5,142 nucleotides of DNA from Candidatus Wukongarchaeum yapensis (lineage in GTDB: Archaea > Asgardarchaeota > Wukongarchaeia > Wukongarchaeales > Wukongarchaeaceae). Position 1 is the stretch's first letter. Each line of letters starts with the position of its first letter. A model generated the notes under the pieces. That model ran no database searches and was not told the DNA's origin. It saw nothing but the letters and a program-made list of their open reading frames with translations. Where the stretch lies: assembly GCA_016840425.1 (NCBI GenBank), contig JAEOSI010000169.1, positions 1 through 5,142 of the forward strand, in the 5' to 3' direction. A program made the translations under genes and the position numbers. This document shows, in pieces, positions 2,941-4,561 of the stretch.

Positions 2941-4038
2941 CGGAAACTGTTTTTTATTTATCTTCATGCCGCAAGAAGACCTCTTCCACAAGGGGGGAGA
3001 TGAATTGCGACCAATGTATATTAGGGGTGCTTAAATATGAATCTTAGGCAAATATTTTTGGGTGAAAATGAGGCTTACAACCGTGCTAAAGCTCTGTTCG
3101 CATAAAGAAGAGCTAAAACAGATGAGCAAGGTTGTAACAGTCCTCTACAACTTAGCCAACTATGAGCGACGTAAAGCTTGGAGGGAAACGGGGAAGATCC
3201 CTAACTACTACCAGCAGTACCACGCTTTGAGGGACCACGAACTGGCAAGGCTTTTGCCTTCTCACACCGTGCAGCAAACCCTGAAAACTTTAGAACACAA
3301 CTACTGAAGCTGGTATGGTCTAAGGAAGAAGGGGGACAAGACAGCAAGACCTCCAGGCTTCAGAAAAACAAAACATCCTTCAACCTTCCGCTTCACCAAC
3401 TGCCACTTCAAAATCATAGGCGACAACACGATAAGGCTCACCACGAAGAACCTCCTCGGAGAGAACATAGAAGTAAAGGTTAAAGGCAACCCGAAAACAC
3501 CTATAAGCAAAATAGAGAAACCTCAGACCCTCACAATAGTCTTCAAAAACGGGGAAAAAATAACCACCGCAAACCTAACTTACAAGATCCCAGACCCAGA
3601 AGAAGAGGAGAATGGCAAAATAATGGGGATAGACTTGGGGATAAAGAACATAACAACAACCTACGACACAGCCGACGGAGAGGTTAGAATATATAAGGGC
3701 GGTAAAATCCTCTCAACCCAGCACCATTTCAACAAGCAAATCCAGAAGCTTCAGAAGAAACTGCCAGGAAAAGAGGACGGAAAAACCCAGCAATACAGCA
3801 AAAACATAACCAAACTTCACAAGAAAAAAGCGAGGCAGATAAAACACCAGCTCCACTGCATAGCCAAAGACATAGTGAAAACCTGCGAAAAAAAGGACAT
3901 AAAGACTGTAGTGGTAGGCGATCTCAAAAACATAAGAAAAAAGAGCAACGGGAAAGGAAAAAAACCTAGGAAGGAAAACAAACCAAAAGCTCCACTCATG
4001 GAGCTATTGGACGCTGACCTCGCTCTTAGAGTACAAAC

Positions 4039-4161
4039 TCAGAAGAGTAGGCATTGCAGTGAACTACTCCCAGCTTTTGCAGGGGGCTTCCTGTTTCAAC
4101 GACGGGATCATCATTATTCATCCATCTCCACAGGCGTAAATTCGGACAGTCCCTGTCCTAC
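4039..4161 (-). ncRNA. Predicted TnpB omegaRNA (reRNA) of the mini-element: scaffold about 4161-4059 plus guide about 4058-4039
   Basis: Perfect hairpin GGACAG-GGA-CTGTCC (4144-4158), a CCTGT/ACAGG stem, a terminal right-end hairpin, and GAATT (4143-4139) able to pair with the terminal AGTTC. It reads VGQGLSEFTPVEM, resembling the C-terminal tail of TnpB proteins that overlaps the omegaRNA. The 5' boundary is approximate. Confidence 0.7.
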
Positions 4162-4257
4162 TCTTCTATATTGTTATTCTTAGGACTATAAATAATTTAT
4201 TATTATTGTGCGACTTTCATCCCTCAGCTTTCGCAAGGGGACTTCTCGCCGAAGAAG
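4059..4257 (-). mobile_element. Nested 199-bp non-autonomous IS200/IS605 mini-element (left end + omegaRNA/right end, no ORF)
   Basis: On the minus strand it follows the target TTTAA (4262-4258), starts CTTCTTCGGCGAGAAGTCCCCTTGCGAAAGCTGAGGGATGAA and ends GAAGCCCCCTGCAAAAGCTGGGAGTAGTTCAC, the same end architecture as the outer element. Removing exactly 4059-4257 restores the tnpB frame (GGC ATT GCA|TTA AAG AAG GTC GGC GAA). Confidence 0.9.
4185..4192 (-). promoter_or_regulatory. Putative archaeal TATA box for the mini-element omegaRNA
   Basis: TTTATAGT on the minus strand, preceded by an A/T-rich stretch and ending about 23 nt upstream of the scaffold start near 4161, a spacing consistent with an archaeal promoter. 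Confidence 0.45.
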
Positions 4258-4419
4258 TTAAAGAAGGTCGGCGAAAAATACACCAGCAGGGCGTGTCATG
4301 CCTGCGGTGATAGGAAGAAGAAAAACCGCGCAAAAAGAGGAAGTTTTAAGTGCAGCGAATGCGGTTACAAAAACCACCCCGATGTGATCGGGGCTATAAA
4401 TATCCTTAAAACGTATCAG

Positions 4420-4561
4420 TATGGAGCGTTGGAAAACGTTCCTAACTGTAATCCCCGCGTGAACTCGGGCAACGTGGTCAAATGGGACGAATCTCATTTG
4501 ACATGTACGGAAGCCCCGTCCGCAAGGGCGGGGTAGTTCACTTGAGTTTTACTCCGACTGC
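4420..4561 (+). ncRNA. Predicted omegaRNA of the outer element: scaffold to 4541 plus guide about 4542-4561
   Basis: Stems GGAGCGTT/AACGTTCC (4423-4442), CCCG/CGGG (4454-4469), GTCAAATGGGA/TCTCATTTGAC (4477-4502) and the right-end hairpin (4514-4533). The loop GTGAACT (4459-4465) is perfectly complementary to the terminal AGTTCAC (4535-4541), i.e. a pseudoknot. The 5' boundary is approximate. Confidence 0.72.

Follow-up and report, generated by a model that had tools for sequence, protein, structure and literature searches.

A gene-less IS200/IS605-type element with an omegaRNA-like right end, nested in a decayed tnpB gene of Candidatus Wukongarchaeum yapensis

A 5,142-nt stretch of Candidatus Wukongarchaeum yapensis DNA (the window) contains, on its minus strand, a 199-bp mini-element at positions 4059-4257 that is one copy of a multi-copy, protein-free family of the IS200/IS605 type. 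We consider it highly probable that this is a PATE/MITE derived from a resident TnpB family, which we call IS-A, and that its would-be guide is a by-product of the site where it landed. Gene-less offshoots of TnpB transposons are a kind of element that is already known, and this is a clean example of one. An initial annotation of the window had gone further, proposing that, given a cognate TnpB in trans, the mini-element would act like a one-spacer anti-transposon array, or as a parasite homing into sibling copies of the transposon that it sits in. Such an anti-transposon function would have been new. However, it fails the available test, because no copy of the host transposon was found with a site that the guide could recognize.

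The window is contig C177 of the assembly G000 (2.16 Mb in 277 contigs, 92% complete). Its genes are of archaeal type and include those for a glycine-cleavage H protein, an MBL-fold hydrolase, OapB, a GTPase, and subunit F of an A/V-ATPase. Between the GTPase and ATPase genes sits a TnpB-type insertion sequence, IS-B, and the mini-element lies inside its tnpB gene (Table 1). Below, G000 is the window's own genome and G001 is a sister genome of the same genus.

Table 1. Coordinates in the window of the outer insertion sequence, the parts of the mini-element, and the adjoining would-be guide
Feature	Position	Strand	Remarks
Outer insertion sequence (IS-B)	2962-4541	+	Left end after the TAM TTTAT (2957-2961); right end finishes with GTAGTTCAC at 4541
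Outer tnpB pseudogene	3068-4536	+	TGA at 3305-3307; extra A in an A7 run at 3958-3964; insertion at 4058/4059
TAM TTTAA	4258-4262	-	Directly 5' of the left end of the mini-element; present before all six near-identical copies
Left end with subterminal hairpin (CCCC..GCGAAAGC..GGG) and GATGAAAG motif	4203-4257	-	Resembles IS-A left ends on C143, C5, and C137
AT-rich spacer with TATA-like box TTTATA (4187-4192)	4168-4202	-	Box in 10 of 11 copies
OmegaRNA-scaffold-like right end, last bases GTAGTTCAC	4059-4167	-	About 74% identical to the IS-A tnpB 3' end plus right end
Would-be 20-nt guide flank	4039-4058	-	Complement of the outer tnpB codons that specify RRVGIA; position from established TnpB/omegaRNA architecture
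Perfect 11-nt inverted repeat	4157-4167 with 4041-4051	+	Scaffold 5' end versus guide positions 8-18

When the mini-element was excised in silico, the flanks rejoined into one open frame (LEYKLRRVGIA followed by LKKVGEKYTSRACHACG) that matches Pfam PF07282 on the 3' side of the junction, and it is the zinc-ribbon domain that the insertion interrupts. The same frame runs uninterrupted across this site in a paralogue on contig C61 (85% amino acid identity) and in three copies in the sister genome. In addition, a metagenome contig (X3, 198 nt with zero differences) covers the 4058/4059 junction. Therefore, the insertion is real. The mini-element inserted 3' of TTTAA without a target-site duplication, and the empty site is seamless. 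Here, TTTAA is a Leu-Lys codon pair of the outer tnpB, and it is conserved in all paralogues and in the sister-genome copies. No open reading frame of at least 40 amino acids lies wholly within 4059-4257, and the listed frame at 3623-4183 merely enters from the outer gene. The initial annotation had stated that removing the mini-element restores the tnpB frame. This is so at the insertion site, but the stop codon and the extra A listed in Table 1 remain.

A search of the window's own genome found at least six copies with the same ends, 199 to 202 bp long and 93 to 100% identical (the window copy, two on C77, and one each on C168, C88, and C160). Some five others have diverged or been interrupted (C253, C147, C201, C268, and C175). 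All six near-identical copies directly follow TTTAA and end with GTAGTTCAC, and their flanks are unrelated. TTTAA also precedes several of the diverged or micro copies. The initial annotation had described an opposite-strand element placed 3' of TTTAA and composed of a left end, a stretch with a TATA-like box, and an omegaRNA-like right end. This was confirmed, and all copies of the family have that anatomy. Among the six near-identical copies, the window copy alone is inside a transposon gene; the remaining five are located either between genes or at the end of one. We therefore rejected a preference for landing in transposon genes. In metagenome contigs, the depth over the mini-element was about 30 times that of its flanks, but these depths are summed over contigs and organisms and so were not taken as a copy number. 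The window copy has five private substitutions in its left end and spacer, three of them in the left end (4224, 4213, and 4210). Its terminal stem contains a C.A mismatch, which is also present in two other copies. For these reasons, it may be immobile.

The TATA-like box is found at a fixed distance, approximately 25 to 30 nt, upstream of the point where homology to IS-A right ends begins. We infer that it may act as a promoter element, with a predicted archaeal start site near 4161-4165, right where that homology starts. The usual spacing between an archaeal TATA box and the start site is about 25 nt. Approximately 107 nt of the mini-element align with the last 113 nt of IS-A tnpB and a 15-nt tail. 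An alignment of 26 right ends, both gene-less and full length, has 41 invariant columns. RNAalifold gave a consensus of 20 pairs in which 98.3% of cells are paired and four pairs show compensatory changes. This covariation exceeded all 500 shuffles and all slid controls, a comparison that is somewhat inflated by the relatedness of the sequences and by the structure being derived from their consensus. One covarying helix is about 100 nt from the end, beyond the subterminal hairpin. TnpA uses the subterminal hairpin and should not need a helix that far away.

Nucleotide diversity among seven closely related copies was 0.029 in the 5' part of the scaffold, 0.029 in the variable hairpin, 0.071 in the 3' part of the scaffold, and about 0.107 in both the left end and the spacer. 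Therefore, the 5' part of the scaffold is approximately 3.5-fold less diverse than the left end and spacer. In the window copy, the scaffold is identical to the family consensus except at position 173. The short, long, and other gene-less lineages are only 72 to 81% identical overall, and their scaffold core is invariant and the helices covary. The diversity values come from small samples of related sequences; they fit with selection on an RNA scaffold but do not prove it. Conservation of the scaffold beyond what transposition presumably needs suggests that there has been selection for borrowing a TnpB nuclease in trans.

One part of the scaffold has been replaced. The long-form copies on C268 and C175 retain the internal CCGAGAGAAATCTCGG hairpin of IS-A, whereas the 199-bp form has a shorter stem in its place, the base of which still pairs. 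The same region was shortened independently in other gene-less lineages (C144 and C154). An Rfam scan of the window gave no match to an omegaRNA family and just two hits at chance level. We also considered a pseudoknot between TGAAC and the terminal GTTCA, but this was rejected because alignment A1 shows no conservation of the upstream partner (GTTGAAAC versus GTTGAACC). A single RNA run, a leaf-litter metatranscriptome (X20), matched few of the sampled words (0.08 of 51 in one comparison and 0.15, or 3/20, in another), which speaks neither for nor against expression.

The host gene of the mini-element has its own lesions. Pieces of the outer tnpB match Pfam PF01385 (OrfB_IS605) and PF07282 (Cas12f1-like TNB zinc ribbon). 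At the position of its TGA codon the sister copies read arginine, and they are in frame through the region of the A run, where sibling metagenome contigs have 1 nt fewer at 3958. Therefore, a nonsense codon and a +1 frameshift have inactivated the host tnpB independently of the mini-element. The outer family is also distinct from IS-A. Its left ends follow TTTAT rather than TTTAA (six of six in the genome), and its protein is approximately 25% identical to IS-A TnpB. Nine IS-B right ends share the terminal hairpin and GTAGTTCAC.

All other IS-B copies in G000 are fragments or internal-deletion derivatives. We found no intact IS-B TnpB in this assembly, where the closest intact TnpB, whatever its family, has 27% identity. 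G001 has three intact, uninterrupted IS-B tnpB genes of 421 amino acids from the first Met (on C92, C4, and C27; loci L043, L042, and L044, respectively). The one on C92 is at the orthologous locus and has the same right flank as the window. This indicates that the outer insertion sequence predates the split of the two species and that the mini-element arrived later. At this GTPase/ATPase locus, IS-B has decayed solely in the lineage of the window.

Two other features of IS-B were noticed. At the usual position of the RuvC-II catalytic glutamate, the IS-B protein has a glycine (VVVGDL, encoded at 3872-3889, versus IAVEKL in IS-A), and the intact G001 copies have this glycine too. This suggests that IS-B has either a relocated glutamate or is a nuclease-inactive family. 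IS-B also has internal-deletion derivatives (C144:5545-6019, C97:7223-7584, and C246:2649-3014) that consist of the left end and the last 160 to 360 bp, and metagenome contigs contain IS-B deletion joints from 3042 to 3985 and from 3060 to 4437. Thus, gene-less derivatives arose repeatedly in several TnpB families of G000.

If the mini-element makes a guide RNA, it would have to borrow its nuclease. G000 has 31 matches to the TnpB zinc ribbon, about a dozen of them in frames of at least 379 amino acids. The IS-A family is on C59, C137, and C205, along with many broken copies, and its members on C137 (P0001, 397 amino acids) and C59 are intact. P0001 has all three Pfam TnpB domains. Like the ISDra2 enzyme, it has the catalytic D/E/D in place, and the two align over residues 6 to 361 (E value, 6e-48). 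Full-length IS-A left ends follow TTTAA and have a TATA box, with TTTATAAA shortly before the tnpB ATG. Therefore, the mini-element looks like a deletion that fused a left end and apparent promoter to the scaffold. The initial annotation had supposed that a cognate TnpB could act in trans, and IS-A provides a candidate, with its homologous right end, its TTTAA-flanked left end, and its intact genes. Because an intact IS-A TnpB with D/E/D is present, the genome does not lack a TnpB with a matching right end and TAM, and we regard this protein as a plausible partner in trans. However, recognition by a resident TnpB is not assured, because the closest full-length right ends are approximately 74% identical and one internal hairpin has been exchanged.

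The sole intact Y1 tnpA in the assembly is at C70:7544-8002, and the left end of its element differs from that of the mini-element. For this reason, it may or may not be the mobilizing enzyme. At C70:7544-8568, this tnpA and the beginning of a tnpB overlap, with the tnpB truncated by the contig end. No other IS605-type element in the assembly appears to be autonomous.

The guide of a TnpB omegaRNA is the DNA flank just beyond the right end. Here, that flank is antisense to the outer tnpB; the initial annotation had noted that it is host tnpB sequence. It had also claimed that the target would be present in every uninterrupted copy of the outer insertion sequence, and this was not supported. 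In G000, there is no other site with fewer than three mismatches to TTTAA plus the 20-nt guide. The best other sites, in partial copies on C61 and C212, have mismatches at guide positions 1, 4, and 17. All three intact G001 copies keep TTTAA, but it is followed by CACCATG, CACGATA, or CACTATA rather than by the TGCAATG of the guide, so that there are three to five mismatches within positions 1 to 7. Searching five related genomes for the target pattern with up to three mismatches gave no match. Exact-pattern scans of genome_contigs and metagenome_contigs gave no hit to the 28-nt rejoined junction or to TTTAA with the first 16 guide bases (21 nt). Cleavage by ISDra2 TnpB is abolished by double mismatches at any place within positions 1 to 12 (PMC10097598). 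Therefore, no intact sibling carrying the target is present in the available data. The sole contrary hint is one contig from a marsh metagenome (depth of 4, shorter side of 30 nt) that joins 4058 to 4258 exactly, possibly an unoccupied allele from a related population.

These results bear on the proposal that the mini-element is a one-spacer anti-transposon device or homing parasite, with a guide that sends a TnpB supplied in trans to uninterrupted IS-B siblings. The architecture is right for this (TAM, scaffold, and a guide derived from tnpB), a candidate TnpB is present, TTTAA is conserved at the site in all IS-B copies, and the marsh joint raises the possibility that somewhere there is an uninterrupted site whose proximal bases match. 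Even so, we think it very unlikely. The genome of the window offers no matching target, its best sites being mismatched at positions 1 and 4, and no intact IS-B TnpB was found in the assembly. The intact G001 copies have TAM-proximal mismatches of the type that abolish cleavage by ISDra2 TnpB, and public contigs held no exact match. Furthermore, only one of the six near-identical copies is in a transposon gene, and that gene has other lethal lesions. A related scenario, at which the marsh joint hints, is that some cells in the natural population keep an uninterrupted IS-B with the exact target, that IS-A TnpB with the mini-element RNA cuts this allele, and that the mini-element is then copied in by recombination. 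We give this very little credence. If it were true, a gene-less element would spread as a drive that disables the tnpB of a rival family, and two families of transposon would be in direct conflict by means of a guide RNA.

It is a more serious possibility, but still a doubtful one, that the window copy is an inert fossil that makes no working guide RNA and cannot move, and that the conservation of the scaffold is only apparent and the result of recent expansion. Its private substitutions and weakened terminal stem are in keeping with this, as is the different left end of the element with the only intact tnpA. The minimum-energy fold also predicts that the guide is occluded, pairing with the 5' end of the scaffold through the 11-nt inverted repeat. 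However, the window copy has kept its TATA box and has a consensus scaffold at all but one position, and recent expansion does not sit well with an invariant core and covarying helices in lineages as diverged as those compared here. The inverted repeat itself is left unexplained by descent as a PATE. Complementarity of 11 nt is unlikely by chance: its empirical frequency for a TTTAA site of the genome is 6e-4, which comes to about 0.007 for 11 copies. It could be a coincidence, a means of guide occlusion, or a trace of annealing between the transposing strand and its target, and it is a single case. The last of these possibilities would mean that the site was chosen by base pairing, with AGAAGAGTAGG of the excised circle annealing to the 11 nt that lie 8 to 18 nt downstream of TTTAA. 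The complement is perfect and is on strands that would be single stranded during peel-and-paste transposition, and the low chance frequency speaks for it. But this is one post hoc observation, the other 10 copies have no 11-nt repeat and complementarity of at most 7 nt, and no such mechanism is known for IS200/IS605 elements. We consider it very improbable.

Our preferred reading, derivation from IS-A as a PATE/MITE, is as follows. An ISDra2-like IS-A element would have lost its whole tnpB coding region to give a gene-less derivative, and this loss would have put the left end, with its apparent TATA-box promoter, directly before the omegaRNA scaffold of the right end. Like its relatives, the derivative would integrate in single-stranded form on the 3' side of TTTAA and duplicate no target sequence, presumably by means of a Y1 TnpA acting in trans. 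The window copy would have landed by chance at a TTTAA in the zinc-ribbon region of the IS-B tnpB, and the guide is tnpB antisense because it landed there. Any transcript of the mini-element would have the neighboring 20 nt of tnpB antisense sequence as its guide. On an IS-A TnpB provided in trans, that RNA would recognize only the empty site of the mini-element itself, which is ordinary retention or homing. The other IS-B copies found would escape recognition because their TAM-proximal bases differ.

Similar elements have been described in bacteria. PATEs often encode omegaRNAs that need the TnpB of other insertion sequences in trans (Meers et al. 2023, PMC10055086). The mini-element resembles the Geobacillus stearothermophilus PATEs (PMC10055086) in having no protein gene, the ends of a resident TnpB insertion sequence family, a right-end omegaRNA scaffold for a TnpB encoded elsewhere, multiple copies, and TAM-adjacent insertion. 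It differs from them in its archaeal host, in the TATA-like box directly upstream of the scaffold, in its exchanged internal hairpin, and in being nested in the tnpB of another family. As in ISDra2 of Deinococcus radiodurans (PMC8612924, PMC10097598), the scaffold overlaps the 3' end of tnpB and the right end and is followed by a guide taken from the adjoining flank. Removal of an internal stem from the ISDra2 RNA (Trim2) keeps or improves activity (PMC8612924, PMC10097598), and the shortened hairpin of the mini-element parallels this. However, the mini-element has the TAM TTTAA rather than TTGAT, its scaffold is unrelated to that of ISDra2 at the nucleotide level, and it has the scaffold alone without the gene. 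It is a clear archaeal case of a transposon that has no gene but retains a guide-RNA scaffold, placed behind a predicted promoter box of its own. As such, it is relevant to how guide RNAs and nucleases came to be separate modules on the way to CRISPR-Cas12.

We also noted some smaller and larger relatives of the mini-element. Micro elements of about 45 bp are present in G000 at C160:803-847 (plus strand) and C104:~5105-5149 (minus strand). In these, a hairpin motif common to both ends connects the first ~29 nt of the left end with the final ~20 nt of the right end, and they are still flanked by TTTAA and end with GTAGTTCAC. The micro element at C160:803 and the full copy at C160:2053 have an identical 15-nt left flank and are in inverted orientation. 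In addition, a second element of approximately 270 to 310 bp, with TIR-like ends, is found within copies of the mini-element (C253:10001-10274, C175:~3567-3876, and C121:~900). Its site is identical each time, in the loop of the left-end hairpin (CTTGCG^AAAGCTGG), in copies that belong to different subfamilies, and two of these inserts are approximately 77% identical. Either the insertion is site specific, or the two elements form a composite lineage and move together.
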